Assembly (NCBI RefSeq): GCF_013122565.1
Contig: NZ_CP053258.1
DNA length: 64,000 nucleotides
Direction: 5' to 3' (one strand)
Source of the DNA: Escherichia coli
Lineage (GTDB): Bacteria > Pseudomonadota > Gammaproteobacteria > Enterobacterales > Enterobacteriaceae
Both the position numbers and the translations under genes were made by a program. Below the pieces are notes generated by a model. The model was not told the origin of the DNA and ran no database searches. It was given only the letters and a program-made list of their open reading frames with translations. Every line of letters starts with the position of its first letter. The first letter of the stretch is position 1. This document shows positions 3,162 to 55,773 of this stretch, one piece after another.

Positions 3162-3880
3162 CGCAGATGACGACCGCCATCAAGTGGGAAACTGCGTCCG
3201 GTGACAAAGCAACTGGTAAGTAAGTAATCGACCAGGTCGATCACTTCTTTCTCGCCAGGCGCGGTTTTCATCAGTGATTTATTCAGCGCCTGTTGTCGAT
3301 ATTCGGCATCATCATGTTCATTAAACAGGATCAGCGATGGCGCAATAGAATTCACTTTCACTTCCGGTGCCAGCTTGCGGGCAAACGAGCGGGTCATATT
3401 ATCCAGTGCCGCTTTGCTTGCAGCATACGCAATATGTTTGTCGCTACCGCGCTCCACCACATAATCGGTAAAGTGAATGATATCGCTGGCGGCGTGTCCG
3501 TGCCCACGCAGTAATCTTTCCAGCGCATGGTTGAGCAGGTATGGGGTATTAACGTGGATCTGCATCATGCAAGCCAGTACGTCGGCCAGTGGCGCACCCG
3601 GTTTTTCCGCCATCCACGCACTGGCGTTATGCAAAATAGCACGCAGACCATGGGTGCTTTTTAGTACTTCGTCGGCAAACGCCATCACACCGTCGTTGGT
3701 CGAAAAATCAGCCTGAATACACTGCGCACCTGCATTAATCAGTCCATCAATGGCTGGATAGTGCGTCCGATAGCTGACAATCACCGGTTGCTTTTGATTA
3801 ATGAAATGCCATGCGAGGGCGAGGCCGATGCGACGACCACCGCCAGTAATTAATATTGGCAAGGGCTGGGCTTTACCCAT
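3158..3880 (-). CDS. folM: Dihydromonapterin/dihydrofolate reductase FolM (SDR family)
   Basis: 240 aa ORF with N-terminal ITGGGRRIG Rossmann motif and YAASKAAL SDR active site. Confidence 0.85.
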   Translation of the reverse strand: MGKAQPLPILITGGGRRIGLALAWHFINQKQPVIVSYRTHYPAIDGLINAGAQCIQADFSTNDGVMAFADEVLKSTHGLRAILHNASAWMAEKPGAPLADVLACMMQIHVNTPYLLNHALERLLRGHGHAASDIIHFTDYVVERGSDKHIAYAASKAALDNMTRSFARKLAPEVKVNSIAPSLILFNEHDDAEYRQQALNKSLMKTAPGEKEVIDLVDYLLTSCFVTGRSFPLDGGRHLR

Positions 3881-35948: not shown

Positions 35949-36036
35949 TCGTTCTTGCTTGTGAGTGAGTTAACTGCATGAGTCTACCACTTTTTTGTGA
36001 CAAGCAATAACCCGGCAGTTACGCCGGGTATAAAAA

Positions 36037-36783
36037 TTACTGACGGTGGACATTCAGTCCGGCATAGCTTTGGGTAACCGGCATCATTTCCAGGGTATTG
36101 ATATTGACGTGAGCAGGCAGCGTTGACACCCACCAGACGGCTTCGCTGACATCTTCTGGCGTCAATGCAACGGTATTTTGATAGGTTTTTTCCGCTTTAC
36201 TGTCATCGCCTTTAAAGCGGACATTGGAAAACTCGGTGCCACCTACCAGACCCGGTTCGATGTCGGTGACGCGCACCGCCGTACCATGCAGGTCCGTACG
36301 CAGATTCAGGCTAAACTGACGAACAAACGCTTTCGTCGCACCGTAAACGTTACCACCGGCATACGGCCAGCTACCTGCCGTTGAGCCAATGTTAATAATA
36401 TGACCATGATTACGTTCAACCATACCCGGTAAGACGGCGCGCGTCATATATACCAGGCCTTTGTTGTTGGTATCAATCATCGTTTCCCAGTCTTCAACGC
36501 TGGCTTTATGCGCAGGCTCCATGCCCAACGCCAGGCCGGCATTATTTACCAGGATATCAATATTGCTCCACTCGGCAGGGAGCGATGCCAACATCTCTTC
36601 AATAGCGGCGCGGTTGCGAACGTCCAGTTGGGCGATATACAGATTATCTCCCAGTTCGTCTTTTAACTCCTGCAACCGCTCCTGGCGACGGCCAGTGGCG
36701 ATAACTTTATGCCCTTGTTGAATAAAACGACGAGTAATGCATTCACCAAAACCTGCCGTTGCTCCAGTTACTAAAACGATCAT
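36037..36783 (-). CDS. ydfG: NADP-dependent 3-hydroxy acid dehydrogenase (SDR family)
   Basis: ORF track 36037..36798; start MIVLVTGATAGFG; 248 aa. Confidence 0.88.
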   Translation of the reverse strand: MIVLVTGATAGFGECITRRFIQQGHKVIATGRRQERLQELKDELGDNLYIAQLDVRNRAAIEEMLASLPAEWSNIDILVNNAGLALGMEPAHKASVEDWETMIDTNNKGLVYMTRAVLPGMVERNHGHIINIGSTAGSWPYAGGNVYGATKAFVRQFSLNLRTDLHGTAVRVTDIEPGLVGGTEFSNVRFKGDDSKAEKTYQNTVALTPEDVSEAVWWVSTLPAHVNINTLEMMPVTQSYAGLNVHRQ

Positions 36784-36919
36784 CTCACTGTTCCTCAACG
36801 CTTTTGTGTGTCAATAACATAGCACGTGATGCTTAAGAGCGGGTAATACTGGTTTGCAAGATTGCACTACGTTATCAGTAAGCCTACGCTATGGAACACC
36901 TCGCGTTCAGGAGAAGAAA

Positions 36920-38965
36920 ATGACAACAATGAATCCTTTCCTTGTGCAAAGCACACTGCCGTATCTGGCTCCCCATTTTGATCAAATTGCCAATCATCAC
37001 TATCGCCCGGCATTCGATGAGGGAATGCTGCAAAAGCGGGCAGAAATTACTGCCATCGCGCTTAACCCGCAAACGCCTGATTTCGACAATACTATTCTGG
37101 CAGTGGAACAAAGCGGAGAATTACTTACCCGCGTTACCAGCGTCTTTTTTGCGATGACTGCGGCGCATACCAATGATGAATTACAGCGTCTTGATGAACA
37201 GTTTTCCGCTGAACTGGCGGAACTGGCTAATGATATCTATCTGAACGGTGAATTATTCGCGCGGGTAGATGCTGTCTGGCAGCGCCGTGAATCTCTGGGG
37301 CTTGATAGTGAATCCATCCGCCTGGTGGAGGTGATTCATCAACGTTTTGTCCTTGCCGGAGCCAAACTTGCGCAAGCTGATAAAGCAAAATTAAAAGTAC
37401 TGAATACAGAAGCTGCGACCCTGACCAGCCAGTTTAACCAGCGGTTACTGGCAGCAAATAAATCCGGCGGTCTGGTTGTGAACGATATCGCGCAGCTGGC
37501 AGGAATGAGTGAGCAAGAGATTGCGCTGGCGGCAGAGGCGGCTCGCGAGAAAGGTCTGGATAACAAATGGCTGATTCCGCTGCTGAATACCACCCAACAA
37601 CCGGCGCTTGCCGAAATGCGCGATCGTGCGACGCGTGAAAAACTGTTTATTGCGGGCTGGACTCGAGCGGAAAAAAATGATGGCAATGATACCCGCGCTA
37701 TCATTCAACATCTGGTGGAGATCCGTGCACAACAGGCAACACTACTTGGTTTTCCTCATTATGCCGCATGGAAAATCGCCGATCAGATGGCAAAAACACC
37801 TGAAGCAGCACTCAACTTTATGCGGGAAATTGTTCCAGCGGCGCGTCAACGTGCGAGCGATGAATTAGCCTCCATACAGGCGGTTATCGATAAGCAGCAG
37901 GGCGGGTTTAGCGCGCAGCCGTGGGACTGGGCATTTTATGCCGAACAGGTCCGGCGGGAGAAATTTGATCTTGATGAGGCGCAGCTCAAGCCATATTTTG
38001 AATTAAACACGGTGTTGAATGAAGGTGTATTCTGGACCGCGAATCAGCTCTTCGGTATTAAGTTTGTCGAACGTTTTGATATTCCTGTCTACCATCCTGA
38101 CGTTCGAGTGTGGGAAATTTTTGATCATAATGGCGTGGGACTGGCGTTATTTTACGGTGATTTCTTCGCCCGTGATTCAAAAAGCGGCGGTGCATGGATG
38201 GGCAATTTTGTTGAGCAATCAACACTTAATGAAACGCGTCCGGTAATTTATAACGTCTGCAATTATCAGAAACCCGCTGCCGGTGAGCCTGCGTTGTTAC
38301 TCTGGGATGATGTCATAACCTTATTCCATGAATTTGGTCATACGCTGCACGGCCTCTTTGCCCGCCAGCGTTATGCCACGCTTTCCGGCACCAACACGCC
38401 GCGTGATTTTGTCGAATTTCCGTCGCAAATCAACGAACACTGGGCAACGCATCCGCAGGTATTCGCTCGCTACGCCCGGCATTATCAGAGCGGGGCAGCA
38501 ATGCCTGACGAACTGCAACAGAAAATGCGTAATGCCAGCCTGTTCAACAAAGGGTATGAGATGAGCGAACTGCTTAGCGCCGCACTTCTCGATATGCGCT
38601 GGCATTGCCTGGAAGAAAACGAAGCAATGCAGGATGTCGATGATTTTGAATTGCGGGCGCTGGTGGCGGAAAATATGGATCTTCCTGCTATACCGCCACG
38701 CTATCGCAGCAGTTATTTCGCCCATATTTTTGGTGGCGGATATGCCGCAGGTTATTACGCTTATCTATGGACGCAAATGTTGGCCGATGATGGTTACCAG
38801 TGGTTTGTTGAGCAGGGCGGATTAACGCGTGAAAATGGGCTGCGTTTTCGCGAGGCGATCCTTTCCAGAGGTAACAGCGAAGATCTGGAACGCCTGTATC
38901 GACAATGGCGCGGTAAGGCACCTCAGATTATGCCGATGCTGCAACATCGTGGCTTGAACATATAA
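36920..38965 (+). CDS. dcp: Dipeptidyl carboxypeptidase II (M3 metallopeptidase)
   Basis: ORF track 36854..38965; canonical start MTTMNPFLVQS; HEFGH zinc motif present; 681 aa. Confidence 0.92.
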   Translation: MTTMNPFLVQSTLPYLAPHFDQIANHHYRPAFDEGMLQKRAEITAIALNPQTPDFDNTILAVEQSGELLTRVTSVFFAMTAAHTNDELQRLDEQFSAELAELANDIYLNGELFARVDAVWQRRESLGLDSESIRLVEVIHQRFVLAGAKLAQADKAKLKVLNTEAATLTSQFNQRLLAANKSGGLVVNDIAQLAGMSEQEIALAAEAAREKGLDNKWLIPLLNTTQQPALAEMRDRATREKLFIAGWTRAEKNDGNDTRAIIQHLVEIRAQQATLLGFPHYAAWKIADQMAKTPEAALNFMREIVPAARQRASDELASIQAVIDKQQGGFSAQPWDWAFYAEQVRREKFDLDEAQLKPYFELNTVLNEGVFWTANQLFGIKFVERFDIPVYHPDVRVWEIFDHNGVGLALFYGDFFARDSKSGGAWMGNFVEQSTLNETRPVIYNVCNYQKPAAGEPALLLWDDVITLFHEFGHTLHGLFARQRYATLSGTNTPRDFVEFPSQINEHWATHPQVFARYARHYQSGAAMPDELQQKMRNASLFNKGYEMSELLSAALLDMRWHCLEENEAMQDVDDFELRALVAENMDLPAIPPRYRSSYFAHIFGGGYAAGYYAYLWTQMLADDGYQWFVEQGGLTRENGLRFREAILSRGNSEDLERLYRQWRGKAPQIMPMLQHRGLNI

Positions 38966-38976
38966 ACACCACCAAT

Positions 38977-39006
38977 GGCTGGCCTGGAGATATCGCCAGG
39001 CCAGCC
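38977..39006. terminator. Stem-loop between convergent dcp and ydeJ
   Basis: GGCTGGCCTGG-AGATATCG-CCAGGCCAGCC long perfect stem. Confidence 0.5.
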
Positions 39007-39009
39007 TGG

Positions 39010-39528
39010 TTATAGCAGTAATTGCAGCAGCTGGGCGAGGGCAAACCTCACCGCTAAAGCTAATACCGTTTCGCAGTCGCCAGCAAAATGCATAACCGCA
39101 GTGTAGGTCTGGCCTTTAATATGCCACGCGAACCAGACGGTACCCGCTGGCGTACCATCTTCACCGCCCTCCGGTCCGCCGTAGCCGGTAATGGCAATAC
39201 TGACATCAGCATCCGCACGCTCTATGGCACCGGTTGCCATTTCTGCTGCCACTTTCTCACTCACCGCAGAATATCGTTCAAGAGATTGCTGGCTTACGCT
39301 GAGGATTTTCATCTTTGCCTGATCGGTGAAAGTAACAAAGCCTGCACCGTAAAATTTGGGTGTATCTTCAGCTGCACACAGGGCGCTAGCCAACTTACCG
39401 CCGGTGCATGATTCGGCGGTAGTTAAGCGTAATTGATCCGCGATAAGTCTTTGACTCAACGCGGATGTCAGGTTTTCAATAGTGTCGGTATCTGCAAGTT
39501 GTACAATTTTATTTCTATTAATGTTCAC
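39010..39528 (-). CDS. ydeJ: CinA C-terminal domain-like protein
   Basis: 172 aa ORF. Confidence 0.8.
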   Translation of the reverse strand: MNINRNKIVQLADTDTIENLTSALSQRLIADQLRLTTAESCTGGKLASALCAAEDTPKFYGAGFVTFTDQAKMKILSVSQQSLERYSAVSEKVAAEMATGAIERADADVSIAITGYGGPEGGEDGTPAGTVWFAWHIKGQTYTAVMHFAGDCETVLALAVRFALAQLLQLLL

Positions 39529-39802
39529 TGTTTTTGTCCACGCTTTTATATGTAAAGGTGATTTGCTTTTTCTGTATGCTCGTCCACTATAATAATTTCA
39601 AACATATAAATCCGATTATTCTGAAAAATATGTTTAAGACTCTTCAATCTTCTTAACTTTAGTGAGTTAAATTCTCTGAATATCTGACAGTTAGTTGGCT
39701 GATTTTAAATGCCTTATAACAATTGGCAGTATTCTTATTTGGCAATTATAAAAATAGCAACCAGACTTAATAAGTCAAACCAAACGCAATTAAGGAGTTA
39801 GT

Positions 39803-40195
39803 ATGAAATTTCAGGCCATTGTATTAGCAAGTTTTCTTGTCATGCCTTATGCGTTGGCAGATGACCAGGGCGGTTTAAAACAGGATGCAGCGCCACCGCC
39901 GCCTCATGCAATAGAAGATGGCTATCGCGGAACCGATGATGCAAAAAAAATGACCGTTGATTTCGCAAAAACCATGCACGATGGCGCTTCGGTTTCACTA
40001 CGCGGTAATTTGATTTCTCATAAAGGAGAAGACCGTTACGTTTTTCGCGATAAGAGCGGTGAAATTAATGTTGTTATTCCTGCAGCAGTCTTTGACGGAC
40101 GAGAAGTTCAGCCGGACCAGATGATCAACATTAGCGGCAGTCTGGATAAGAAAAGCGCGCCGGCCGTCGTTCGGGTCACTCATTTGCAGAAATAA
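39803..40195 (+). CDS. ydeI: Periplasmic OB-fold stress protein (YgiW/BOF family)
   Basis: 130 aa with signal peptide. Confidence 0.8.
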
Positions 40196-40449
40196 AAATA
40201 AATTAGCCTGATGGCCTGAACTACTGGGCCATTTGGGTATGGGGTTATGCTATTTGTCATCCTTTTATTTGTGATAATGCAGTGGTAATTTACAGAATTA
40301 AACACTTTTTTATCCGCTGATTTTGTTTTAAATCACAATGTTATCTCAGAGATGAATCATAACTTCGGATTTCTATGAAAATATTGACGTAATTTTGCTT
40401 TTCTCTCGTTAGAATAGCGCGCACAAGGAACTGTGAAAAAGGAGTGGCA

Positions 40450-41340
40450 ATGATCAAGAAGACAACGGAAATTGATGCCATCTTGTTAAATCTCAATAAG
40501 GCTATCGATGCCCACTACCAGTGGCTGGTGAGTATGTTTCACAGCGTGGTCGCGAGAGATGCCAGTAAGCCAGAAATAACGGATAACCATTCTTATGAAC
40601 TGTGCCAGTTTGGTCGGTGGATTGATCATCTGGGGCCACTCGATAACGATGAATTACCTTACGTTCGGCTAATGGATTCTGCCCATCAACATATGCATAA
40701 CTGTGGTCGGGAATTAATGCTGGCTATTGTTGAAAATCACTGGCAGGACGCGCATTTCGACGCTTTTCAGGAAGGGTTACTTTCTTTTACTGCGGCATTA
40801 ACCGATTACAAAATTTATTTACTGACGATCCGTAGCAATATGGATGTTTTGACGGGATTGCCGGGGCGTCGGGTTCTTGATGAATCCTTTGATCATCAGT
40901 TACGCAACGCTGAGCCTCTGAATCTTTATTTAATGTTGTTGGATATTGACCGATTTAAATTGGTTAATGATACCTACGGGCATTTAATCGGCGATGTAGT
41001 ATTACGCACCCTGGCAACTTACTTAGCCAGTTGGACGCGTGATTACGAAACGGTTTATCGCTACGGGGGCGAAGAATTTATCATTATTGTCAAAGCGGCT
41101 AATGATGAAGAAGCATGTCGTGCAGGTGTCAGAATTTGCCAGTTAGTCGATAACCATGCCATCACACATTCTGAAGGGCATATCAACATTACCGTGACAG
41201 CAGGTGTGAGTCGCGCATTTCCTGAAGAGCCTCTGGATGTGGTCATTGGAAGAGCGGACCGGGCAATGTATGAGGGTAAGCAAACCGGAAGAAATCGCTG
41301 CATGTTTATTGACGAACAAAATGTGATTAACCGAGTTTAA
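40450..41340 (+). CDS. dgcZ: Zinc-sensing diguanylate cyclase DgcZ (CZB + GGDEF)
   Basis: ORF track 40444..41340; start MIKKTTEIDAILL; RYGGEEF motif; 296 aa. Confidence 0.9.
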   Translation: MIKKTTEIDAILLNLNKAIDAHYQWLVSMFHSVVARDASKPEITDNHSYELCQFGRWIDHLGPLDNDELPYVRLMDSAHQHMHNCGRELMLAIVENHWQDAHFDAFQEGLLSFTAALTDYKIYLLTIRSNMDVLTGLPGRRVLDESFDHQLRNAEPLNLYLMLLDIDRFKLVNDTYGHLIGDVVLRTLATYLASWTRDYETVYRYGGEEFIIIVKAANDEEACRAGVRICQLVDNHAITHSEGHINITVTAGVSRAFPEEPLDVVIGRADRAMYEGKQTGRNRCMFIDEQNVINRV

Positions 41341-41379
41341 GCTCCGTTTAACATTCATTGAGAAAACTGATGCTACTGT

Positions 41380-41485
41380 GTCAACGATCCGTTATCAGTG
41401 CAGGAAAATGCCTGTTAGCGTAAAAGCAAAACACAAATCTATCCATGCAAGCATTCACCGCCGGTTTACTGGCGGTTTTTTTTCG
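41380..41485 (+). ncRNA. mgrR: Probable MgrR sRNA
   Basis: About 100 nt between dgcZ stop and a plus-strand intrinsic terminator (CCGCCGG-TTTA-CTGGCGG followed by T8); position matches K-12 mgrR between dgcZ and mgtS. Ends approximate. Confidence 0.4.
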
Positions 41486-41490
41486 CCGTC

Positions 41491-41531
41491 ATAAAAATCA
41501 GGCCCCTTGTACACAACTGTAACAAGGGGCC
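41491..41531 (-). terminator. Rho-independent terminator downstream of mgtS
   Basis: GGCCCCTTGT-loop-ACAAGGGGCC 10 bp stem followed on the minus strand by a T-rich run. Confidence 0.45.
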
Positions 41532-41558
41532 GGTTAGGTGAGGGATTATCTCCGTTCA

Positions 41559-41654
41559 TTAGTCATCCCATTTGTGGCTGAAATACGCGGCCAGAAAACC
41601 AGAAAATAAAATTATTCCCAGTACGGCCATAAAAACATTCATATTACCCAGCAT
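41559..41654 (-). CDS. mgtS: Small membrane protein MgtS (YneM), 31 aa
   Basis: Manual translation MLGNMNVFMAVLGIILFSGFLAAYFSHKWDD with GGAGG RBS; too short for ORF track. Confidence 0.8.
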   Translation of the reverse strand: MLGNMNVFMAVLGIILFSGFLAAYFSHKWDD

Positions 41655-41780
41655 TATTTGCCTCCGTTTATGGTGTGGTGTGTTTCCTCGCTTACCTTAA
41701 TTTTCATCTCAATGAGAAAGATATTAGCAGAGGTAACCTAAACGAAGGCTGAATTAAATTTTTATTGTGTTCGACTTAAA

Positions 41781-42968
41781 TCAACAAAGCGCGGGCTGCC
41801 CCCACGGTCTTGCACGAATCCCTTTTAACATCAGCACCCACGCAGCAATAATCACCAACGCTAAGATGATAAACAGCGAGGAAGGCGGCAGGTTGGTTAG
41901 CACTAGGCCACTCACTAATGGGTTAATTGCGGCACCAAGCCAGCCTAAAGACTGGGCGGAAAAATAGCTGGCTTTCATTCCTGGCGGCGCAATATGGTCA
42001 ATCAACATATACTCGCCCGGCGCATAAATGATTTCACCGACAGTAAATACCGCAGCTGACATACCCCACAATAGCAGGCTGTTGCCGGAAAAAATAAAAC
42101 CGACCAGTCCGATGACGAAACAGAGGGTGCCTGCTGTCATCAGCGCGCGGATGTTAGCCGGGTTAAGGCGGCGGCCCACGGAATATTGCAATGTAACCAC
42201 CATGGCAGCATTCACCGGAAGAACAACCGCGACCACCTTTTCGGCAAAATCCCCATCAGCAATCACCATCACATATTGTGAAATGCATGAAGCAAATGCG
42301 CCGCTAACAAAAGAAGCCAGAAAACCAGAGCAGGTAAACCACAACAGTGCTTTATCTTGTAATAAAACTTTCGGCGACCAGACACTGCCTGTTTCCGTGG
42401 CGATGATTTTCTCGCTGCGCTTTACCCATATTTGAATGAAAAGCATGGGGAACGCGGAACAGATAGCTGCCAGCCAGAAGGGCAGATTGATGCTCTGCAT
42501 CACCAACAGCGTGCCGAGCGGCGGACCGATGGTCCAGCCAATGTTTAGCATGGTGTAGTTAATTGAGAAGATTTTCGTTTTGCTGGTGGACGAAAGATTG
42601 TCGGCAAACCAGGCTTTCAACACGGTAGCAAAAACGGAATAGGCGCAGTTAATGAGGGCAAAAAAGAGCACCACCAGCGTCACGTTATTCACTAAAGGAA
42701 TGGCAATAAAACCGCTGGCGAAGGCGGTAATTGCCAGTAACATATAGCGTTTCTTGTCGAACTTATCCGCCAGGATACCAAAACCGAGGCTAAAAACGAC
42801 GCCAATAGTGAGCGCAATTGTCATCGCATAACCGATTAGATCGACACTCAGGCTGTACTGGCGACTCAAGTAAATGGTCATAAATGGCAGCGTAGCGCCG
42901 CGTCCGATGGTTAATAACAACGACGAGGCAAGAAGGGCGCTGGTAGAGCGTCGTAGGGATAAGTTCAT
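41781..42968 (-). CDS. ydeE: MFS efflux transporter YdeE
   Basis: 395 aa 12-TM ORF. Confidence 0.85.
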   Translation of the reverse strand: MNLSLRRSTSALLASSLLLTIGRGATLPFMTIYLSRQYSLSVDLIGYAMTIALTIGVVFSLGFGILADKFDKKRYMLLAITAFASGFIAIPLVNNVTLVVLFFALINCAYSVFATVLKAWFADNLSSTSKTKIFSINYTMLNIGWTIGPPLGTLLVMQSINLPFWLAAICSAFPMLFIQIWVKRSEKIIATETGSVWSPKVLLQDKALLWFTCSGFLASFVSGAFASCISQYVMVIADGDFAEKVVAVVLPVNAAMVVTLQYSVGRRLNPANIRALMTAGTLCFVIGLVGFIFSGNSLLLWGMSAAVFTVGEIIYAPGEYMLIDHIAPPGMKASYFSAQSLGWLGAAINPLVSGLVLTNLPPSSLFIILALVIIAAWVLMLKGIRARPWGQPALC

Positions 42969-43162
42969 TTGTCTGTCCGGCAGTGCGTTTCGTTATGTTT
43001 TGTTTTAGAGATGTAAAGAAATAGCATGGCAAAAATCCGAAGTATAGCGACTTATTTGCGCATTAATGCCGTCGTAATCGGCGACTAACGAATCAACTGT
43101 TAAAGAAAAGTAAATTCAGCTAAGTTGATTGCTTACAAAAGATGAAATTCAGAGGCGGTAGA

Positions 43163-44059
43163 ATGTCGCGAAAAGATGGGGTGTTGGCGCTACTGGTAGT
43201 GGTCGTATGGGGGCTAAATTTTGTGGTCATCAAAGTGGGGCTTCATAACATGCCACCGCTGATGCTGGCCGGTTTGCGCTTTATGCTGGTCGCTTTTCCG
43301 GCCATCTTTTTTGTCGCACGACCGAAAGTACCACTGAATTTGCTGCTGGGGTATGGATTAACCATCAGCTTTGCGCAGTTTGCCTTTCTGTTCTGCGCCA
43401 TTAACTTTGGTATGCCTGCTGGACTGGCTTCGCTGGTGTTACAGGCACAGGCGTTTTTTACTATCGTGCTTGGCGCGTTTACTTTCGGTGAGCGACTGCA
43501 TGGCAAACAATTGGCGGGGATCGCCTTAGCGATTTTTGGCGTACTGGTGTTAATCGAAGATAGTCTGAACGGTCAGCATGTGGCGATGCTCGGCTTTATG
43601 TTGACCCTGGCGGCAGCATTTAGTTGGGCGTGCGGCAACATCTTCAATAAAAAGATCATGTCGCACTCAACGCGTCCGGCGGTGATGTCGCTGGTAATCT
43701 GGAGCGCATTAATCCCAATCATTCCCTTCTTTGTTGCTTCGCTGATTCTCGATGGTTCCGCAACCATGATTCACAGTCTGGTTACTATCGATATGACCAC
43801 CATCTTGTCTCTGATGTATCTGGCGTTTGTGGCGACAATTGTTGGTTATGGGATCTGGGGAACACTACTTGGACGCTATGAAACCTGGCGGGTTGCACCG
43901 TTATCGTTACTGGTGCCCGTAGTAGGACTGGCAAGTGCGGCACTATTGTTGGATGAACGCTTAACGGGTCTGCAATTTTTCGGTGCGGTGCTCATTATGA
44001 CCGGGCTGTATATCAATGTATTTGGCTTGCGGTGGCGTAAAGCGGTAAAGGTGGGTTAA
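43163..44059 (+). CDS. eamA: Cysteine/O-acetylserine exporter EamA (DMT family)
   Basis: ORF track 43142..44059; start MSRKDGVLALLVVVVWGLNF; 299 aa. Confidence 0.88.
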   Translation: MSRKDGVLALLVVVVWGLNFVVIKVGLHNMPPLMLAGLRFMLVAFPAIFFVARPKVPLNLLLGYGLTISFAQFAFLFCAINFGMPAGLASLVLQAQAFFTIVLGAFTFGERLHGKQLAGIALAIFGVLVLIEDSLNGQHVAMLGFMLTLAAAFSWACGNIFNKKIMSHSTRPAVMSLVIWSALIPIIPFFVASLILDGSATMIHSLVTIDMTTILSLMYLAFVATIVGYGIWGTLLGRYETWRVAPLSLLVPVVGLASAALLLDERLTGLQFFGAVLIMTGLYINVFGLRWRKAVKVG

Positions 44060-44089
44060 TAAGCCCCGAGATGTCGGGGCCAGAACAAA

Positions 44090-44308
44090 CTACATAGCGT
44101 GTTGATTATAATAGGGCACGCCGAGCGCATCCGACTTATCACTGCCAGTACCCATGTGATTTAAATCAAACGGTGGTTGTTCCTGCGATGGGGGAACAAC
44201 CACGACATTGGCACAGGAAGTAACAACTGGCTGCGTGGTTTGTTCCGCAACGCCCTGCGCGGAAAAGAGAATAAGCGCAGCTGCTATTGCGGATAAAAGT
44301 GGTTTCAT
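44090..44308 (-). CDS. marB: Multiple antibiotic resistance protein MarB
   Basis: 72 aa with signal peptide; downstream of marA. Confidence 0.9.
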   Translation of the reverse strand: MKPLLSAIAAALILFSAQGVAEQTTQPVVTSCANVVVVPPSQEQPPFDLNHMGTGSDKSDALGVPYYNQHAM

Positions 44309-44339
44309 GATTGCCTCAGTGACGTTGTCACGTTATCAA

Positions 44340-44729
44340 CTAGCTGTTGTAATGATTTAATGGATGTAAAAAGCGCGATTCGCCCTGCATATTGGTCATC
44401 CGGTATTTATGCGGCGGAACATCAAAGTAATTTTTGAAGGTTCGGGTCAGAGTTTGTTGCGACTCGAAGCCATATCGTTCTGCCAGATAGAGTATCGGCT
44501 CGTTACTTTCCTTCAGCTTTTGCGCGATTTCCGTCATCTTACGGCTGCGGATGTATTGGCCTAATGAATGACCGGTTTCTTTTTTAAACATCCGTTGCAG
44601 GTGCCATTTAGAGTAACCCGAACGCTCTGACACTTTCTCCAGTGACAGTGGCGATTCCAGGTTGTCCTCGATCCAGTCCAAAATGCTATGAATGGTAATA
44701 GCGTCAGTATTGCGTCTGGACATCGTCAT
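44340..44729 (-). CDS. marA: AraC/XylS-family transcriptional activator MarA
   Basis: Translation [24 protein letters not shown]; canonical protein may start at the second Met (44723). Confidence 0.92.
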
Positions 44730-44743
44730 ACCTCTTTTTTTGT

Positions 44744-45178
44744 TTACGGCAGGACTTTCTTAAGCAAATGCTCAAGTGTTGCCACTTCGTCCGCCGTCAG
44801 GTTTTTTGTTAATTCTTGGTGCAGGTCCTGGCCAACTAATTGATGGCATTGTTCACATATTGCCGCGCCGCTGGTGGTAAGTTTTACCAGTACGCCGCGC
44901 TTATCATTCGGGTTCGGCAACCTTTCCACCCAGCCTTTACAGACCAGGCGATCCAGCATACGGGTCAGTGCTCCAAGGTCGACCGACAACACTTTTTTCA
45001 GTTCAACCGGAGTAATACACGCCGCGCAGCGGATAGAGCAGAGCACCTTAAACTGTGCCGCGGTAATATCCAGCGGAGACAGATACTCGTTAAGCAGGCG
45101 ATCTTTCTTCTGATTAACCATATGGATTAAGCGACCCAATGGAATAATTTCATTGAACAGATCGCTGGTACTTTTCAC
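44744..45178 (-). CDS. marR: Repressor MarR
   Basis: 144 aa; translation [33 protein letters not shown]. Confidence 0.92.
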
Positions 45179-45179
45179 A

Positions 45180-45277
45180 TTAGTTGCCCTGGCAAGTAAT
45201 TAGTTGCAGAGGATAATATTGCCCAGGCAAGTATAAGTCAAATGAATGAATTGACCGATGCCACGTTTTGCTAAATC
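45180..45277 (-). promoter_or_regulatory. marO operator/promoter: MarR sites II and I, -35 hexamer, and marbox
   Basis: Read on the mar strand: ATTACTTGCCAGGGCAACTAA (site II, about 45180-45200), TACTTGCCTGGGCAATATTAT (site I, about 45213-45233), TTGACT -35 (45236-45241), GATTTAGCAAAACGTGGCATCGGTC marbox (about 45253-45277). Confidence 0.8.
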
Positions 45278-45389
45278 GGTTCAAGTTTTGGTCAATGCGA
45301 TGCAAGGTTAGCTAAAGAGTGACACTTTATCCTTCTTTACCCCTTATACTTTTCGCTGATAACCCAGATACACAGGATAACAACCACCA

Positions 45390-46055
45390 ATGTTAGATTT
45401 GTTTAAAGCAATTGGCCTGGGGCTGGTGGTGTTACTGCCGTTAGCTAACCCATTAACAACTGTCGCGTTATTTCTTGGCCTGGCAGGCAACATGAACAGT
45501 GCCGAACGTAATCGTCAGTCGTTGATGGCCTCGGTGTACGTCTTTGCCATCATGATGGTGGCGTATTACGCCGGGCAACTGGTGATGGATACATTTGGCA
45601 TTTCGATTCCCGGTCTGCGAATTGCAGGCGGCTTAATCGTCGCGTTTATCGGTTTTCGGATGCTTTTTCCGCAACAGAAAGCGATTGATTCACCGGAGGC
45701 GAAAAGCAAGTCGGAAGAGCTGGAAGATGAACCCAGTGCCAATATTGCCTTTGTGCCACTGGCAATGCCAAGTACCGCCGGTCCGGGAACCATAGCGATG
45801 ATTATTAGCTCTGCGTCCACAGTGCGTCAGAGTTCAACCTTCGCTGATTGGGTACTGATGGTTGCGCCGCCGCTGATCTTTTTCCTTGTGGCGGTTATTT
45901 TGTGGGGAAGTCTACGCAGCTCTGGCGCAATTATGCGGCTGGTGGGTAAGGGGGGCATTGAAGCGATCTCCCGTCTGATGGGATTTCTGCTGGTATGTAT
46001 GGGGGTGCAGTTTATTATTAACGGCATCCTGGAAATCATTAAAACGTACCACTAA
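45390..46055 (+). CDS. marC: MarC-family inner membrane protein (UPF0056)
   Basis: 221 aa; divergent from marRAB. Confidence 0.9.
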
Positions 46056-46079
46056 AAAAGGCCCGAATGGGCCTTTCAA

Positions 46080-47270
46080 CTATTGCGTCTGTTCTTCGAG
46101 TGTCACTGGCCAGCGGCGGAAAATGATGATTGACCATATTAACGCGGCAAAAGCAGGCACCGCGCCCACATAACCAATCATCGACATTGACCAGTGCAGA
46201 CTTACCTGATTACCTACCAACGCACCCGCGCCGATTCCAATATTAAATATCCCGGAGAATAGCGCCATCGCGACGTCGGTGGCATCTGGTGCCAGCGCCA
46301 GCACTTTAACCTGCATACCAAGCCCGATGATCATCATCGCGATCCCCCAGAAAATACTCAGCACCCCGAGGTGTATTTCACTGTTCGCCGCAGGTAGCAG
46401 CAGTGCCAGGCACACCAGCAACAGTGCAATCGCCGTACTCACCAACCCAGACGCATACTGATTACCCAGTTTACCGAAAATCACGCTGCCAATAATGCCC
46501 GCACCACCGAGTAATAACAGTAATGCCGTGGCAAAGTTGGCGCTGAATCCCGCAATGTTTTGCACAAAAGGCTCGATATAGCTGTATGCCGTGTAATGGG
46601 CAGTGACAACCACCACAGTTAACAAATAAATGCTCATCAATGCCGGGCGGCGGAACAATAGCGGGAGGCTTTTCAATGAACCGGAATGCTCACTGGGCAG
46701 TAAGGGAAGTAACTTAATCAGGCACAAAAGGGTAATAAGCGCCCCGATACCAATCGCGAAGAAGGTCATTCGCCAACCGAAATACTGCCCCACAATGCGC
46801 CCGAGAGGTAATCCTAATACCATTGCCAGTGCTGTACCTGTGGCAATTAAACTCAATGCCTGTGCTCGCTTCCCGGCCGGAGCCATACGGATCGCCAGGG
46901 ACGCCGTAATCGACCAGAAAATCGCATGTGCAAAAGCCACACCAATGCGACTGATCACCAGAACGGTAAAGCTCCACGATAAAAACGACAGTACGTGGCT
47001 GGCAATAAACACCACAAACAGGCAGATCAGTAATTTGCGCCGTTCAACCTGGCTGGTCATTAACATAAAAGGCAATGACATTAGCGCTACTACCCATGCG
47101 TAAATGGTCAACATGATGCCGACCTGAGCGGTTTGCATGTGAAAACTTTGCGCAATGTCAGAGAGCAGGCCAACAGGGACAAATTCGGTGGTGTTGAAGA
47201 TGAAGGCGGCGACTGCCAGCGTAACGACCCGTAGCCACGCCACTTTGCGGGAAACAGTGTTTGTTGTCAT
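46080..47270 (-). CDS. sotB: MFS sugar efflux transporter SotB (YdeA)
   Basis: 396 aa 12-TM ORF. Confidence 0.88.
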
Positions 47271-47419
47271 AACAGATTATCGGGTGAGTTGCGAAAAAGT
47301 GATGAAATGATCTTAAAGCGGTTAATGATGTGAATACAATGCATTTGTGATCTGGATCGCGTTTTCCGTTTCTCTGACGCTGATTCTGTTCCGCGTCAGA
47401 GAGTTGGTAACATCACGGT

Positions 47420-48535
47420 TTAATGACGTTCAGGGAGATCTGGCGTTTTGGAGGTTGCGGGTATAGGTGGTCTGACAGGGGAGCGAGGCCTGTTTTTCAC
47501 CAGGTCTTCGTGAGTAACTTTTGGCGGTGTTTCATTTTTTACAAACAGTTTGAGGGTCCTGCGCGCCATATGTTTGATAATTTTATCATCACTTAATGAT
47601 GCTGGCATCAACACGTCATTCAAATCACTTTCATTGGGATTCATAAATTGGTGATAGTGCAATAACATATTGGCGAAAAATAAAAACAAGTCCTGAAAAT
47701 GAGGAGGTTCTTGTTCTGCTAAAAGGGATAAAAAGCAGATGCAGACTTCGGGTAGTACATGTTTGTTAGAACCTAATGAATCCATCAGGCTTTGCAATAA
47801 ATCCTCTTTTAATTCGCTGTCCGTTATGTCGAGAATGGCGGTGATCAAGTTAGGATCTTTATTGATGAACCATCTGTGAACCTCAGAGTTATTCCATAAT
47901 CGGGGGAGTATGACAAAATTACCGCGAGAGATAAAATTCAGGACAAGCAAATCAAACTGGCGTAAGTAATCTGCAGCGGTATGGTGATCCGGAGGCAGGG
48001 GGTCAATATGTGGTGTATGCGCTCTTTTGATGGGAACGCCAGGGTTGATCATTGGAAATTGTTCAATAAAGTCATTCAGAAACAGAAAGAGCACACGCTC
48101 GACGCCGGTCTGAAATACGCGCCCCATAGTGACAGGCTTTGGGTTGGGAGCGCAAAAAATATTAATTTCTCCATCATGGCGGAAATTATCTAAATAAATA
48201 GGGCTTAAATTTATTACTACCTGAAATTCAATATTTTCTTTGTGTCTTCCATTCCTGGCGGGATAAGTGAGTTTTAACTGAACCTTTTCATTGTATAGCG
48301 TGTCGTTACCCCGAAAAGAAGTCCTCTGAATATATGATAAGTTGTCAAGGTTATTAAATATCTTTTTTGTGGCTGAGTTGATGTTTAAAGACGTGCGCCA
48401 CTCTTCATCACATATTATTGTACTAAGTGCATCAATAAAATCCTTTAAAACTTCTTTTACCTGAGGTGCAATATTACGTACGGGAAAATCTTCAGGAAGA
48501 GATATGTAATTGCTGATGCTTACTGGCGTAACCAT
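47420..48535 (-). CDS. yneK: Uncharacterized protein YneK
   Basis: 371 aa ORF; AT-rich coding sequence; proline-rich C-terminus; no recognisable domain. Confidence 0.75.
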   Translation of the reverse strand: MVTPVSISNYISLPEDFPVRNIAPQVKEVLKDFIDALSTIICDEEWRTSLNINSATKKIFNNLDNLSYIQRTSFRGNDTLYNEKVQLKLTYPARNGRHKENIEFQVVINLSPIYLDNFRHDGEINIFCAPNPKPVTMGRVFQTGVERVLFLFLNDFIEQFPMINPGVPIKRAHTPHIDPLPPDHHTAADYLRQFDLLVLNFISRGNFVILPRLWNNSEVHRWFINKDPNLITAILDITDSELKEDLLQSLMDSLGSNKHVLPEVCICFLSLLAEQEPPHFQDLFLFFANMLLHYHQFMNPNESDLNDVLMPASLSDDKIIKHMARRTLKLFVKNETPPKVTHEDLVKNRPRSPVRPPIPATSKTPDLPERH

Positions 48536-48612
48536 ATTTGCCCCATATAGTCATAAGTCATCGGAACATCACTATATAGAGCATATTAGCCGCAAGAACT
48601 ATCAAAAATAGC

Positions 48613-49494
48613 TCATTGGTAACCCTGTCTTGCCGAGTCAGGCACATCCAGCAGTTGAATAAATGCCTCTAGCGGACGCGTTTTCGCACCACGACGCCAG
48701 ACCAGCCAGGTTGTTAACCAACGCCATTGCTCAGCTAACGGCCACGCTTCAACCTGGTGATGCCCCGGCATACTTTCCAGCATAGAGCGCGGAATAAGCG
48801 CAATGCCTGCTCCTGCGACTACACAGGCCAACATTCCGTGATAAGACTCCATCTCATGGATAGTTCCCGGAGCGGCACCGTCAGCATGAAACCAGCTCTC
48901 GAAGTGGCGACGATACGAACAATTGGCGCGGAAGGCATAAATGTTACTGCCATTCACCTGACTGGCACGGGTTACTGGCGCATGTCCTTGTGGCGTGACA
49001 ATCATCAGCTCCTCGCGGTATACCGGTATCCCGTCAATGGCGGTATGGTTAATGGGCCCATCAATAAACGCCGCATTCAGTTTTCCCTCCAGCACCCCTT
49101 CCAGCATAGTGCCGGAAGGGCCGGTGGAAAGTGAAAACTGAATTTTGGGATAACGACGGTTGAATTCCGCCAGTGTGGCCGGAATGCGAACTGCTGCGGT
49201 GCTTTCCAGCGAACCTAGAGAAAATAAACCTTGCGGCTCATCGCCAGCGACAACGCTCCGCGCTTCATCCACTAACGCGAGAATTTGTTGGCTATAGCGT
49301 AAAAAGTTATGCCCGGCAGGAGAGAGACGTAAACGCTGATTCTCGCGAATAAACAGATCTACCCCCAGTTCTGTTTCCAGCTGGCGTAGACGGGTAGTGA
49401 GATTCGACGGCACGCGATGCACTATTGCTGCAGCCTGCGTAATGCTGCCAGCTTCGGCAACCGCGTTGAACATCTCCAGTTGGGTCAGATCCAT
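48613..49494 (-). CDS. yneJ: LysR-family transcriptional regulator
   Basis: 293 aa; N-terminal HTH; divergent from sad. Confidence 0.85.
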
Positions 49495-49594
49495 AATATT
49501 CTCGATTCGTGAATAAGTGGCTTAATATTATTCATTTTAAAGCAAGAGTAAATCTGCGTATCTTCATACCATGACTCATAAAGGAGATACCCCG

Positions 49595-50983
49595 ATGACC
49601 ATTACTCCGGCAACTCATGCAATTTCGATAAATCCTGCCACGGGTGAACAACTTTCTGTGTTGCCGTGGGCTGGCGCTGATGATATCGAAAACGCACTTC
49701 AGCTGGCGGCAGCAGGTTTTCGTGACTGGCACGAGACAAATATAGATTATCGTGCTGAAAAACTGCGTGATATCGGTAAGGCTCTGCGCGCCCGTAGCGA
49801 AGAAATGGCGCAAATGATCACCCGCGAAATGGGCAAACCAATCAACCAGGCGCGCGCTGAAGTGGCGAAATCGGCGAATTTGTGTGACTGGTATGCAGAA
49901 CATGGTCCGGCAATGCTGAAGGCGGAACCTACGCTGGTGGAAAATCAGCAGGCGGTTATTGAGTATCGACCGTTGGGGACGATTCTGGCGATTATGCCGT
50001 GGAATTTTCCGTTATGGCAGGTGATGCGTGGCGCTGTTCCCATCATTCTTGCAGGTAACGGCTACTTACTTAAACATGCGCCGAATGTGATGGGCTGTGC
50101 ACAGCTCATTGCCCAGGTGTTTAAAGATGCGGGAATCCCACAAGGCGTATATGGCTGGCTGAATGCCGACAATGACGGTGTCACTCAGATGATTAAAGAC
50201 TCGCGCATTGCTGCTATCACGGTGACCGGAAGTGTTCGTGCTGGAGCGGCTATTGGCGCACAGGCTGGAGCGGCACTGAAAAAATGCGTACTGGAACTGG
50301 GCGGTTCGGATCCGTTTATTGTGCTTAACGATGCCGATCTGGAACTGGCGGTGAAAGCGGCGGTAGCCGGACGTTATCAGAATACCGGGCAGGTTTGTGC
50401 AGCGGCAAAACGCTTTATTATCGAAGAGGGAATTGCTTCGGCATTTACCGAACGTTTTGTGGCAGCTGCGGCAGCCTTGAAAATGGGCGATCCCCGTGAC
50501 GAAGAGAACGCTCTCGGACCAATGGCTCGTTTCGATTTACGTGATGAGCTGCATCATCAGGTGGAGAAAACCCTGGCGCAGGGTGCGCGTTTGTTACTGG
50601 GCGGGGAAAAGATGGCTGGGGCAGGTAACTACTATCCGCCAACGGTTCTGGCGAATGTTACCCCAGAAATGACCGCGTTTCGGGAAGAAATGTTTGGCCC
50701 CGTTGCGGCAATCACCATTGCGAAAGATGCAGAACATGCACTGGAACTGGCTAATGATAGTGAGTTCGGCCTTTCAGCGACCATTTTTACCACCGACGAA
50801 ACACAGGCCAGACAGATGGCGGCACGTCTGGAATGCGGTGGGGTGTTTATCAATGGTTATTGTGCCAGCGACGCGCGAGTGGCCTTTGGTGGCGTGAAAA
50901 AGAGTGGCTTTGGTCGTGAGCTTTCCCATTTCGGCTTACACGAATTCTGTAATATCCAGACGGTGTGGAAAGACCGGATCTGA
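49595..50983 (+). CDS. sad: NAD-dependent succinate-semialdehyde dehydrogenase Sad (YneI)
   Basis: ORF track 49571..50983; start [19 protein letters not shown] (AAGGAGA RBS); 462 aa. Confidence 0.9.
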
Positions 50984-51046
50984 CGCGACATATTCAGCTC
51001 TGATATACTCGCAGGTCTTTTCAGACCTGCGGTCCAGGAGTAGAAA

Positions 51047-51973
51047 GTGGCAGTCGCCATGGATAATGCAATTTTAGAAAACATCTTGCGGCAAGTGCGG
51101 CCGCTCATTGGTCAGGGTAAAGTCGCGGATTATATTCCGGCGCTGGCTACAGTAGACGGTTCCCGATTGGGCATTGCTATCTGTACCGTTGACGGACAGC
51201 TTTTTCAGGCTGGAGACGCGCAAGAACGTTTTTCCATTCAGTCTATTTCCAAAGTGCTGAGTCTCGTTGTCGCCATGCGTCATTACTCCGAAGAGGAAAT
51301 CTGGCAACGCGTCGGCAAAGATCCGTCTGGATCACCGTTCAATTCTTTAGTGCAACTGGAAATGGAGCAGGGTATTCCGCGTAATCCGTTTATTAATGCC
51401 GGTGCGCTGGTGGTCTGCGATATGTTGCAAGGGCGATTAAGCGCACCACGGCAACGTATGCTGGAAGTCGTGCGCGGCTTAAGCGGTGTGTCTGATATTT
51501 CCTACGATACGGTGGTAGCGCGTTCCGAATTTGAACATTCCGCGCGAAATGCGGCTATCGCCTGGCTGATGAAGTCGTTTGGCAATTTCCATCATGACGT
51601 GACAACCGTTCTGCAAAACTACTTTCATTACTGCGCTCTGAAAATGAGCTGTGTAGAGCTGGCCCGGACGTTTGTCTTTCTGGCTAATCAGGGGAAAGCT
51701 ATTCATATTGATGAACCTGTGGTGACGCCAATGCAGGCACGGCAAATTAACGCGCTGATGGCGACCAGTGGTATGTACCAGAACGCGGGGGAGTTTGCCT
51801 GGCGGGTGGGACTACCGGCGAAATCTGGCGTTGGTGGCGGTATTGTGGCGATTGTTCCGCATGAAATGGCCATCGCAGTCTGGAGTCCGGAACTGGATGA
51901 TGCTGGTAACTCGCTTGCGGGCATTGCCGTCCTTGAACAATTGACGAAACAGTTAGGGCGTTCGGTTTATTAA
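51047..51973 (+). CDS. glsB: Glutaminase 2
   Basis: 308 aa serine-dependent glutaminase family. Confidence 0.9.
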
Positions 51974-52332
51974 TGCAGTCTCTCGATCCACTCTTCGCGC
52001 GTTTATCCCGTTCAAAATTTCGATCTCGTTTTCGTTTGGGCATGAAAGAGCGTCAGTATTGTCTGGATAAAGGTGCGCCAGTCATCGAACAACATGCGGC
52101 GGATTTTGTCGCTAAACGTCTTGCTCCGGCATTACCGGCTAATGACGGTAAGCAAACCCCCATGCGCGGGCATCCGGTGTTTATCGCTCAGCACGCCACT
52201 GCAACCTGTTGTCGCGGTTGTCTGGCTAAGTGGCATAACATTCCGCAGGGTGTTTCGTTAAGCGAGCAACAACAACGTTATATCGTGGCGGTAATCTATC
52301 ACTGGCTGGTTATACAGATGAATCAGCCATGA
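51973..52332 (+). CDS. yneG: DUF4186-family protein
   Basis: 119 aa; start overlaps glsB stop. Confidence 0.75.
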   Translation: MQSLDPLFARLSRSKFRSRFRLGMKERQYCLDKGAPVIEQHAADFVAKRLAPALPANDGKQTPMRGHPVFIAQHATATCCRGCLAKWHNIPQGVSLSEQQQRYIVAVIYHWLVIQMNQP

Positions 52333-52470
52333 GAATTGCGGAAAACGATAAAATAGCATTCCCAGGGTACCTTTATTTGCCGCCGCTGTCAGCGAACATG
52401 CTATCCTTTATGAGAATTTACTTATTACGTTGAGATAATTGCCACCCGCAATTGTATGGACAGATAATTA

Positions 52471-53889
52471 ATGCATGTACACCCCATTTCAACTTTCCGT
52501 TTGTTCCAGGAAGGTCATCTGCTACGTAATAGCATCGCTATTTTTGCGCTAACCACGCTGTTCTATTTTATTGGTGCAGAGTTACGGCTGGTTCACGAAC
52601 TTTCTCTTTTCTGGCCGCTGAATGGCGTAATGGCGGGGGTGTTTGCTCGCTATGTCTGGCTTAATCGACTGCATTACTATGCGATCAGTTATGTGGCGAT
52701 GCTGGTTTATGATGCCATAACCACCGAATGGGGACTGGTTTCACTGGCTATCAATTTCTCCAATATGATGTTTATTGTTACCGTCGCCTTACTGGTCGTG
52801 CGGGATAAGCGTTTGGGGAAAAATAAGTATGAGCCAGTAAGTGCCTTACGGCTATTTAATTACTGTCTGATTGCCGCATTATTATGCGCTATTGTCGGGG
52901 CGATTGGTTCGGTCAGTATTGATAGTCTGGATTTCTGGCCTTTGCTTGCGGACTGGTTCAGTGAGCAATTCTCAACGGGCGTGTTGATCGTGCCTTGTAT
53001 GCTGACGTTGGCTATTCCTGGAGTGCTGCCGCGCTTTAAAGCAGAACAGATGATGCCCGCCATCGCGCTTATTGTGTCGGTTATTGCCTCGGTAATCATT
53101 GGCGGAGCGGGGAGTCTGGCGTTCCCGCTGCCTGCATTAATCTGGTGTGCAGTGCGCTATACGCCGCAGGTAACATGTCTGTTGACCTTTGTCACCGGTG
53201 CGGTGGAAATCGTACTGGTGGCTAATTCGGTGATTGATATCTCGGTCGGTTCGCCGTTCTCCATTCCGGAAATGTTCTCCGCACGTCTCGGTATTGCCAC
53301 GATGGCGATATGCCCAATTATGGTTTCTTTTAGCGTGGCAGCGATCAATTCGCTAATGAAGCAAGTTGCGCTGCGAGCCGACTTTGATTTTCTGACTCAG
53401 GTTTACTCACGGTCCGGTCTTTATGAGGCGCTGAAAAGTCCATCGCTGAAACAGACACAACATCTGACTGTCATGCTGCTTGATATCGACTATTTCAAAA
53501 GTATTAACGATAACTATGGACATGAATGTGGCGATAAAGTGTTAAGCGTGTTTGCCCGGCATATTCAGAAGATTGTCGGTGATAAGGGGCTGGTGGCGCG
53601 CATGGGCGGCGAAGAATTTGCTGTTGCAGTGCCGTCGGTGAATCCTGTCGATGGTCTGCTAATGGCGGAAAAAATCCGTAAAGGCGTTGAACTGCAACCA
53701 TTCACCTGGCAACAAAAAACGCTTTATCTCACTGTAAGTATTGGCGTCGGTAGTGGTCGCGCATCGTACCGAACGCTGACCGATGACTTTAATAAATTGA
53801 TGGTCGAAGCCGATACCTGTCTGTATCGCTCGAAGAAAGATGGGCGCAACCGTACCAGCACTATGCGTTACGGGGAGGAAGTTGTCTGA
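52471..53889 (+). CDS. dgcF: Membrane-anchored diguanylate cyclase (GGDEF domain)
   Basis: 472 aa ORF; N-terminal multi-TM sensor region then GGDEF domain (MGGEEFA). Confidence 0.75.
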   Translation: MHVHPISTFRLFQEGHLLRNSIAIFALTTLFYFIGAELRLVHELSLFWPLNGVMAGVFARYVWLNRLHYYAISYVAMLVYDAITTEWGLVSLAINFSNMMFIVTVALLVVRDKRLGKNKYEPVSALRLFNYCLIAALLCAIVGAIGSVSIDSLDFWPLLADWFSEQFSTGVLIVPCMLTLAIPGVLPRFKAEQMMPAIALIVSVIASVIIGGAGSLAFPLPALIWCAVRYTPQVTCLLTFVTGAVEIVLVANSVIDISVGSPFSIPEMFSARLGIATMAICPIMVSFSVAAINSLMKQVALRADFDFLTQVYSRSGLYEALKSPSLKQTQHLTVMLLDIDYFKSINDNYGHECGDKVLSVFARHIQKIVGDKGLVARMGGEEFAVAVPSVNPVDGLLMAEKIRKGVELQPFTWQQKTLYLTVSIGVGSGRASYRTLTDDFNKLMVEADTCLYRSKKDGRNRTSTMRYGEEVV

Positions 53890-54115
53890 CATCTTTATTC
53901 ATTCAGAGCGTTTTAAATGCAATGTGTTCTACCACTTTATGTTCGAAGAAAAGGCGTATTTCCTCAATTAAACCATGATCCGCGCCACACTTTTCTCATA
54001 AAACTGCTCATTAATCATCAGGAGTTGATCAAAACAGGGGTTCGGCGTATTAAAGTTTGCTAACCTGTCGTACCAATTCAAACAGGTTGTATGACTAATC
54101 AGAAGGGAACCCATT

Positions 54116-55567
54116 GTGAAAACACTAAATCGTCGCGATTTTCCCGGTGCACAGTATCCAGAACGTATCATTCAGTTTGGTGAAGGTAACTTCCTGCGCG
54201 CATTTGTTGACTGGCAAATAGATCTCCTGAATGAGCACACCGATCTGAATTCTGGTGTGGTCGTTGTTCGTCCGATTGAAACTTCATTCCCGCCGTCACT
54301 GAGCACGCAGGATGGTCTGTACACCACCATTATCCGTGGCCTGAATGAGACGGGGGAAGCGGTCAGCGACGCGCGTCTGATTCGCTCTGTTAATCGTGAA
54401 ATCAGCGTCTACAGTGAATACGATGAATTCCTGAAACTGGCGCACAACCCGGAAATGCGCTTTGTTTTCTCTAACACCACCGAAGCGGGTATCAGCTACC
54501 AGGCGGGCGATAAATTCGATGACGCGCCAGCGGTAAGCTATCCCGCAAAACTGACCCGTCTGCTGTTCGAACGTTTTAGCCATTTCAACGGTGCGCTGGA
54601 TAAAGGTTGGATCATCATCCCGTGTGAGTTGATTGACTACAATGGCGACGCGTTGCGTGAACTGGTGCTGCGCTATGCGCAAGAGTGGGCACTGCCAGAA
54701 GCATTTATTCAATGGCTGGATCAGGCTAACAGCTTCTGTTCTACGCTGGTGGACCGTATCGTTACCGGTTATCCGCGTGATGAAGTGGCTAAACTGGAAG
54801 AAGAACTGGGTTATCACGATGGTTTCCTCGACACCGCTGAACACTTTTACCTGTTTGTGATTCAGGGACCGAAATCCTTAGCGACCGAGCTGCGTCTGGA
54901 CAAATATCCGCTCAACGTGCTGATTGTTGACGATATTAAACCGTATAAAGAACGCAAAGTGGCAATACTCAACGGTGCACACACCGCGTTGGTGCCGGTG
55001 GCGTTCCAGGCAGGGCTGGATACCGTAGGTGAAGCGATGAACGATGCTGAAATTTGCGCATTCGTTGAAAAAGCCATCTACGAAGAAATTATTCCGGTTC
55101 TGGATTTGCCTCGCGATGAACTGGAGTCTTTCGCCAGTGCAGTCACCGGGCGTTTCCGTAACCCGTACATCAAGCATCAGCTGCTGTCTATCGCGCTCAA
55201 CGGTATGACCAAGTTCCGCACCCGCATCCTGCCGCAGCTACTGGCAGGGCAGAAGGCAAACGGCACACTTCCGGCGCGCCTTACTTTCGCATTAGCGGCA
55301 TTGATTGCGTTCTATCGCGGTGAGCGTAACGGAGAAACATATCCGGTACAGGACGATGCACACTGGCTGGAACGTTATCAGCAACTCTGGAGCCAGCATC
55401 GTGACCGTGTTATCGGTACCCAGGAACTGGTTGCGATTGTGTTGGCAGAAAAAGACCACTGGGAGCAGGACCTGACGCAAGTGCCTGGTCTGGTCGAGCA
55501 GGTTGCTAATGACCTGGATGCGATTCTTGAAAAAGGGATGCGCGAAGCTGTACGTCCGTTGTGCTAA
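54116..55567 (+). CDS. uxaB: Altronate oxidoreductase (tagaturonate reductase)
   Basis: 483 aa; N-terminal [10 protein letters not shown] Rossmann motif. Confidence 0.9.
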
Positions 55568-55773
55568 TAACACCGTTACTTCTGAACCCGGTTTCGACCG
55601 GGTTTCTTCTTTCACCATATTAGTTACAACATCCTATGTGCCTTTATCATTAACAGGTGCCACATGCAGCGCCTGTTAATGTTGTAAGCTTATAGGTAAT
55701 TTGTAAGTAGCGTCTTGAGAATGTGATCGTAATCACGTTTAATAGGGCGACTTTTCCACGCCTGAAGATAACC

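Follow-up and report, generated by a model that had tools for sequence, protein, structure and literature searches.

The marR-marC intergenic region of an Escherichia coli genome: very probably a wild-type marO operator-promoter

MarR is released by phenolic compounds and by copper-dependent oxidation, and clinical mar mutants carry either an inactive MarR or a destroyed MarR site (PMC12052159; PMC5684230). For a given mar locus, the question is whether it carries the wild-type regulatory region or a derepressed one. Here, the question was asked of a 64,000-nucleotide stretch of Escherichia coli DNA (contig NZ_CP053258.1), referred to as the window, in which an earlier note, made by eye from the sequence, had claimed a complete marO region. 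The locus is very probably the canonical, functional, wild-type E. coli marO operator-promoter, and its variants natural polymorphism outside the recognition elements; this marO is already known and ordinary.

The interval 45179-45389 (minus strand) has the K-12 length of 211 bp and is the entire marR-marC intergenic region by its ORF boundaries, because the minus-strand gene marR, with a GTG start, extends to 45178 and the plus-strand gene marC begins with an ATG at 45390. It contains the marRAB operator-promoter and the region upstream of the divergent marC. marR (44744-45178, minus strand) is an intact ORF of 144 aa; marA (44340-44723, minus strand) encodes 127 aa, marB (44090-44308, minus strand) 72 aa, and marC (45390-46055, plus strand), which diverges from marRAB, 221 aa. 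Like marRAB, the marO motifs are all read on the minus strand. The gene order eamA-marBAR-marC-ydeA-yneK is common to the window, K-12 MG1655 and strain M10. All four genes are intact, and their products matched NCBIfam equivalog families over their full length, with 320 bits for MarR (NF008565; cut-off 240), 294 bits for MarA (cut-off 202), 142 bits for MarB (cut-off 87) and 377 bits for MarC (cut-off 162), and MarR aligned end to end with PDB entries 3VOE, 5H3R and 1JGS.

The intergenic region was aligned base by base with marO of K-12 MG1655 (NC_000913.3, 1618909-1619119), which lies at the same position between divergent marC and marR and has the same 211 bp. The two are identical at 207 of 211 positions, with four substitutions and no indel, and the coordinates 45179-45389, given in the earlier note for a complete marO, proved exact. 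The exact MarR core occurs in only two copies in the 64-kb window, both in marO and 35 nt apart; this uniqueness, together with the ungapped identity to K-12, shows that marO is not a chance resemblance.

The reference for element positions was the legend of Fig. 1 in PMC5890708, which gives, as offsets from the marR start codon, the Shine-Dalgarno sequence at -9 to -12, the MarR sites at -1 to -23 and -35 to -58, the promoter at -35 to -63, a possible AcrR site at -63 to -72 and the marbox at -80 to -99. Offsets were converted such that nucleotide -n corresponds to window position 45178 + n, and the motifs in the window coincide exactly with the offsets of this legend. MarR site II occupies 45179-45201 (minus strand, nt -1 to -23 from the marR GTG), with its palindromic core TTGCCAGGGCAA located by exact string at 45184-45195 and the marR Shine-Dalgarno sequence AGGG (45187-45190) inside the site. 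MarR site I occupies 45213-45236 (minus strand, nt -35 to -58), and its core TTGCCTGGGCAA (45219-45230) lies between the -35 hexamer TTGACT (45236-45241, minus strand) and the -10 hexamer TATTAT (45213-45218, minus strand), which are separated by 17 nt. The putative AcrR site, positioned by the same legend, falls at 45241-45250 (minus strand). Site I, site II, both hexamers, the spacer, the putative AcrR site, the marbox and the marR ribosome-binding site match K-12 at every base, and all four substitutions fall outside site I, site II, the hexamers, the spacer, the putative AcrR site and the marbox. The two operators and the promoter elements TTGACT and TATTAT had been recognised by eye; the alignment bears them out as undisplaced and the operators as not degenerate, both MarR sites matching K-12 and lying at the offsets of the published legend. 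The published limits of the MarR sites are footprints, and contacts just outside them may be possible.

In a promoter scan, the arrangement TTGACT-17 nt-TATTAT matched the consensus at 10 of 12 positions and was the top sigma-70-like match within 44000-46150. From the hexamer spacing and the marbox of the marRAB promoter, which we take to be centred at -61.5, marRAB transcription would start at 45205-45206 (minus strand), 7-8 nt downstream of the -10 hexamer. An antisense promoter-like match was also seen at 45189-45217 on the plus strand (CTGGCA, 17 nt, GATAAT; 9 of 12), spanning both MarR sites and facing marC; it may be a mere by-product of the symmetry of the operator/-10 region.

The marbox, the binding site of MarA, SoxS and Rob, had been claimed upstream of the -35 element and is found there as the 20-bp sequence GATTTAGCAAAACGTGGCAT at 45258-45277 (minus strand, nt -80 to -99), identical to K-12; its consensus is found on the plus strand and so runs against the direction of marRAB. 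The MarA ChIP-seq site given for marC<>marR, 'ccacgttttgctaaa', matches this marbox (PMC5684230). A scan of the window with the degenerate marbox consensus, allowing up to two mismatches, returned 13 matches against 19 expected, i.e. not above chance, with the marO copy as the single best match; the consensus by itself is thus uninformative, and it is only the identity to the K-12 site that carries weight. Upstream of the marbox lies the Fis accessory region, which we take to extend over 45278-45297 (minus strand), with approximate boundaries. Binding of Fis is reported on the upstream side of the marbox (PMC6003448), and sequence homologous to the accessory region is present here with one substitution, A to C at -113, which is the majority E. 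coli allele. Three marbox-like direct repeats were observed on the plus strand (45262-45275, 45282-45295 and 45303-45316, with a spacing of 20-21 nt), comprising the true marbox core CACGTTTTGCTAAA and two 79% copies upstream, of which the second copy of the set overlaps the Fis accessory region; the SNPs at -113 and -130 fall in the two upstream copies. These repeats may be due to chance.

Experiments in K-12 and ETEC underpin the mar model (PMC5684230; PMC6003448): the sites of Fis, MarA, RNAP and MarR all emerge from Sort-Seq, in which the MarR signal disappears when marR is deleted (PMC6003448), and in MarR ChIP-seq the marRAB promoter was the sole target isolated (PMC5684230). Applied to the window, the model would have marRAB driven by the sigma-70 promoter (TTGACT, 17 nt, TATTAT) and MarR dimers bound to two TTGCCnGGGCAA palindromes; at site I, between -35 and -10, MarR would exclude RNA polymerase, and at site II it would cover the marR ribosome-binding site. 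Salicylate or copper-dependent oxidation would release MarR and lead to more transcription, which MarA (or SoxS/Rob) at the marbox, aided by Fis upstream, would amplify, and MarA would then activate acrAB, tolC and micF elsewhere in the genome. As every recognition element is identical to K-12, we infer a repressed, inducible circuit: judged by its sequence, the allele should be repressed at rest and inducible, and should not be a mar mutant. The earlier note had read the region as implying an intact mar regulatory circuit; this is supported for the local marO-marRAB part, and acrAB, tolC, micF, soxS and rob lie outside the window. The strain is expected to carry a normally repressed, inducible mar system rather than a constitutive multidrug-resistance allele, and the meaning of the locus beyond annotation is small; as annotation, it assigns the window to the mar region of an E. 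coli-type chromosome.

Across marR, marA, marB and marC, the window and K-12 differ by 20 synonymous and 4 non-synonymous changes. The MarA and MarC proteins are identical to those of K-12, G103S and Y137H are the sole changes in MarR, and MarB has S5L and H44Q; both MarB changes are frequent in clinical E. coli, with H44Q present in 14 of 20 strains (PMC8597741). Relative to K-12, marR has no frameshift, stop or indel, and MarR has no substitution in residues 55-100, given as its DNA-binding region in PMC5890708. The K-12 alignment of marO and marR, which the earlier note had proposed as a check, has thereby brought up no known derepressing change, be it an operator indel or duplication, a marR frameshift or stop, or a substitution in residues 55-100. 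Seven coding differences in marR, marA and marC set the window apart from both K-12 and the closely related strain N3 (NZ_CP031609.1), and all seven are synonymous; the synonymous excess points to real divergence under purifying selection. Between marR and marA, the sense strand has a run of 7 A at 44735-44741 versus 6 in K-12, which makes the spacer one base longer; the run lies upstream of the marA ribosome-binding site, is also found in strain N3, and probably has no effect.

Allele counts were obtained by querying 5426 complete E. coli genomes by BLAST with 57- or 72-base queries centred on the variant and counting exact matches; they are lower bounds on frequency, because any other difference within the query drops a record from the top identity band. 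Counted in this way, the context of MarR S103 was exact in 3009 of 5414 records and that of H137 in 4192 of 5416, which makes both the majority alleles and K-12 the unusual sequence at MarR. Read as resistance mutations, as in the lists of some resistance-gene pipelines, G103S and Y137H, or else a change in the operator, would weaken repression and lead to constitutive MarA and low-level multidrug resistance. Both substitutions are indeed present, whole-genome surveys list them among determinants 'that confer MDR' (PMC9784582), and the intergenic region does depart from K-12. However, a state shared by the majority of complete E. coli genomes speaks against such a reading, as does the literature on the two substitutions, which show no association with levofloxacin resistance and are carried by isolates with MICs of 0.016-0.25 mg/L (PMC4317672), are reported to leave repressor activity unaffected (PMC11753663), and are not shown to increase efflux alone (PMC8597741). 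Neither lies in the DNA-binding region as delimited in PMC5890708, and both operator sites match K-12 without an indel. Derepressed mar mutants from the laboratory and the clinic are affected at this same locus by marR loss of function or by marO deletion or duplication, one known example being a 20-bp operator duplication (cited in PMC3920692); in contrast, these defining lesions are absent from the window, where the DNA-binding and dimerisation regions of MarR are unsubstituted except for the neutral Y137H. A mar-mutant allele is highly improbable and was rejected on account of the intact operators and the neutral majority alleles of MarR.

The four intergenic substitutions lie at -32 (45210; sense strand T, K-12 C), the third base after the -10 hexamer; at -113 (45291; sense strand C, K-12 A), in the Fis accessory region; at -130 (45308; sense strand A, K-12 G); and at -157 (45335; sense strand G, K-12 C), 55 nt upstream of the marC ATG. 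The -113/-130 haplotype was exact in 3013 of 5401 E. coli records and is the majority haplotype, K-12 having the minority one; -113 C is also found in E. albertii. K-12 is hence a poor 'wild type' at mar, with G103S, Y137H and the -113/-130 haplotype representing the E. coli majority state, and a naive K-12 comparison or a resistance-mutation pipeline would over-call resistance here. At -32, T is a minority allele, its 57-mer being exact in 98 of 5401 records (1.8%); the position lies between the two MarR sites and between the -10 hexamer and the presumed start, about 4-5 nt upstream of the latter. Carriers of -32 T came from humans, pigs, chickens, cattle, frogs, a baboon, a migratory bird, water, sediment and seawater, a breadth of hosts and environments that fits a circulating lineage marker and not a pattern of drug selection. 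The 57-mer with -157 G was exact in none of 4843 matching E. coli records, and exact-pattern scans for the -157 G allele were negative in the GTDB species representatives and the metagenome contigs alike; the 8 other Escherichia-type sequences of the alignment all have C at this position.

The closest complete genomes are those of N3 and M10 (NZ_CP010200.1), whose marO is identical to that of the window at 210 of 211 positions, the one difference being C instead of G at -157. Both share with the window -32 T, -113 C and -130 A as well as the 7-A run of the marR-marA spacer, and their MarR (WP_000843419.1, with S103 and H137) and MarA proteins are identical to those of the window. Over 2051 aligned bases of the marC-marB segment, N3 differs from the window at 23, and its MarB is unlike that of the window at residues 17 and 20. 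The best identity among complete E. coli genomes was 98.6% over 20 kb (36000-56000) and 99.6% over marRAB (44090-45178), and the window looks like an E. coli-type lineage unrepresented among the complete RefSeq E. coli genomes, GTDB representatives and metagenome contigs searched.

For comparison across species, marO loci were retrieved with a pattern that required both MarR cores and the -10 hexamer, which yielded E. albertii, E. whittamii, Escherichia sp. E1V33, Citrobacter amalonaticus, C. sedlakii and Intestinirhabdus alba; conservation of the MarR core and the -10 hexamer among them is by construction, as the loci were selected on these elements. In these Enterobacteriaceae, the -35 hexamer is also TTGACT, except for Intestinirhabdus with TTGACA, and the marbox core is kept with its spacing, as is the context of the GTG start. 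Divergence is seen in the six bases that follow the -10 hexamer and immediately ahead of the GTG, and it is greatest upstream of the marbox; the half of marO nearer to marC does not align in Citrobacter. With CCCCTG, CCTCTG, CCCGCG, CGCCAG, CTGCCG and CCCCGA in the alignment, conservation within the core promoter is lowest in the six bases after -10, and their free variation indicates that position -32 is weakly constrained.

These data bear on whether the two rarer substitutions have an effect of their own. With MarR and MarA binding untouched, the change of CCCCTG to CCTCTG by -32 C>T could alter the basal or induced strength of the marRAB promoter, and -157 C>G, in addition or instead, the transcription of marC. 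Base composition between the -10 hexamer and the start can affect promoter kinetics or open-complex stability, and a rare base in just this interval, together with a G at -157 seen nowhere else in the sequences searched and C in every other Escherichia aligned, would fit such a variant. It is nevertheless unlikely: constraint on the six bases after -10 is weak across species, the circulation of -32 T in many hosts and environments is unlike drug selection, and the literature searched holds no marC promoter mapped at -157. It likewise gives no marC start site, and the plus-strand promoter scan was without a convincing match for a marC promoter near 45335. The one private change in the 211 bp of marO (0.47%) compares with a best match of 99.6% over the 1089 nt of marRAB; its density equals that of private differences in the adjacent coding DNA, so that -157 belongs to the local background and needs no special explanation. 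In the more specific form of a lineage-specific cis-regulatory variant, in which -32 C>T, perhaps with -157 C>G, shifts the basal or induced marRAB output or marC expression, an effect is more doubtful still; if true, it would mean a minority E. coli lineage with slightly different intrinsic drug tolerance at unchanged MarR and operators. Alternatively, the private base at -157 could be a sequencing or assembly error, as it was found in none of the 5426 complete E. coli genomes, the GTDB representatives or the metagenome contigs. Against an error, the whole neighbourhood differs from the closest genomes, to the extent given above for the 20-kb and marRAB comparisons, and the seven coding differences from K-12 and N3 are without exception synonymous, unlike random error; we consider it improbable to about the same degree as the lineage-specific variant. 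The reading of the four substitutions as natural polymorphism in a wild-type marO is the one preferred here.

A further copy of marO, identical to that of E. coli K-12, was encountered in a metagenome-assembled genome labelled 'Caldithrix sp. CR04bin15', on a 31-kb contig (SMXE01000224.1, about 3803-3849); this contig is almost certainly E. coli contamination.
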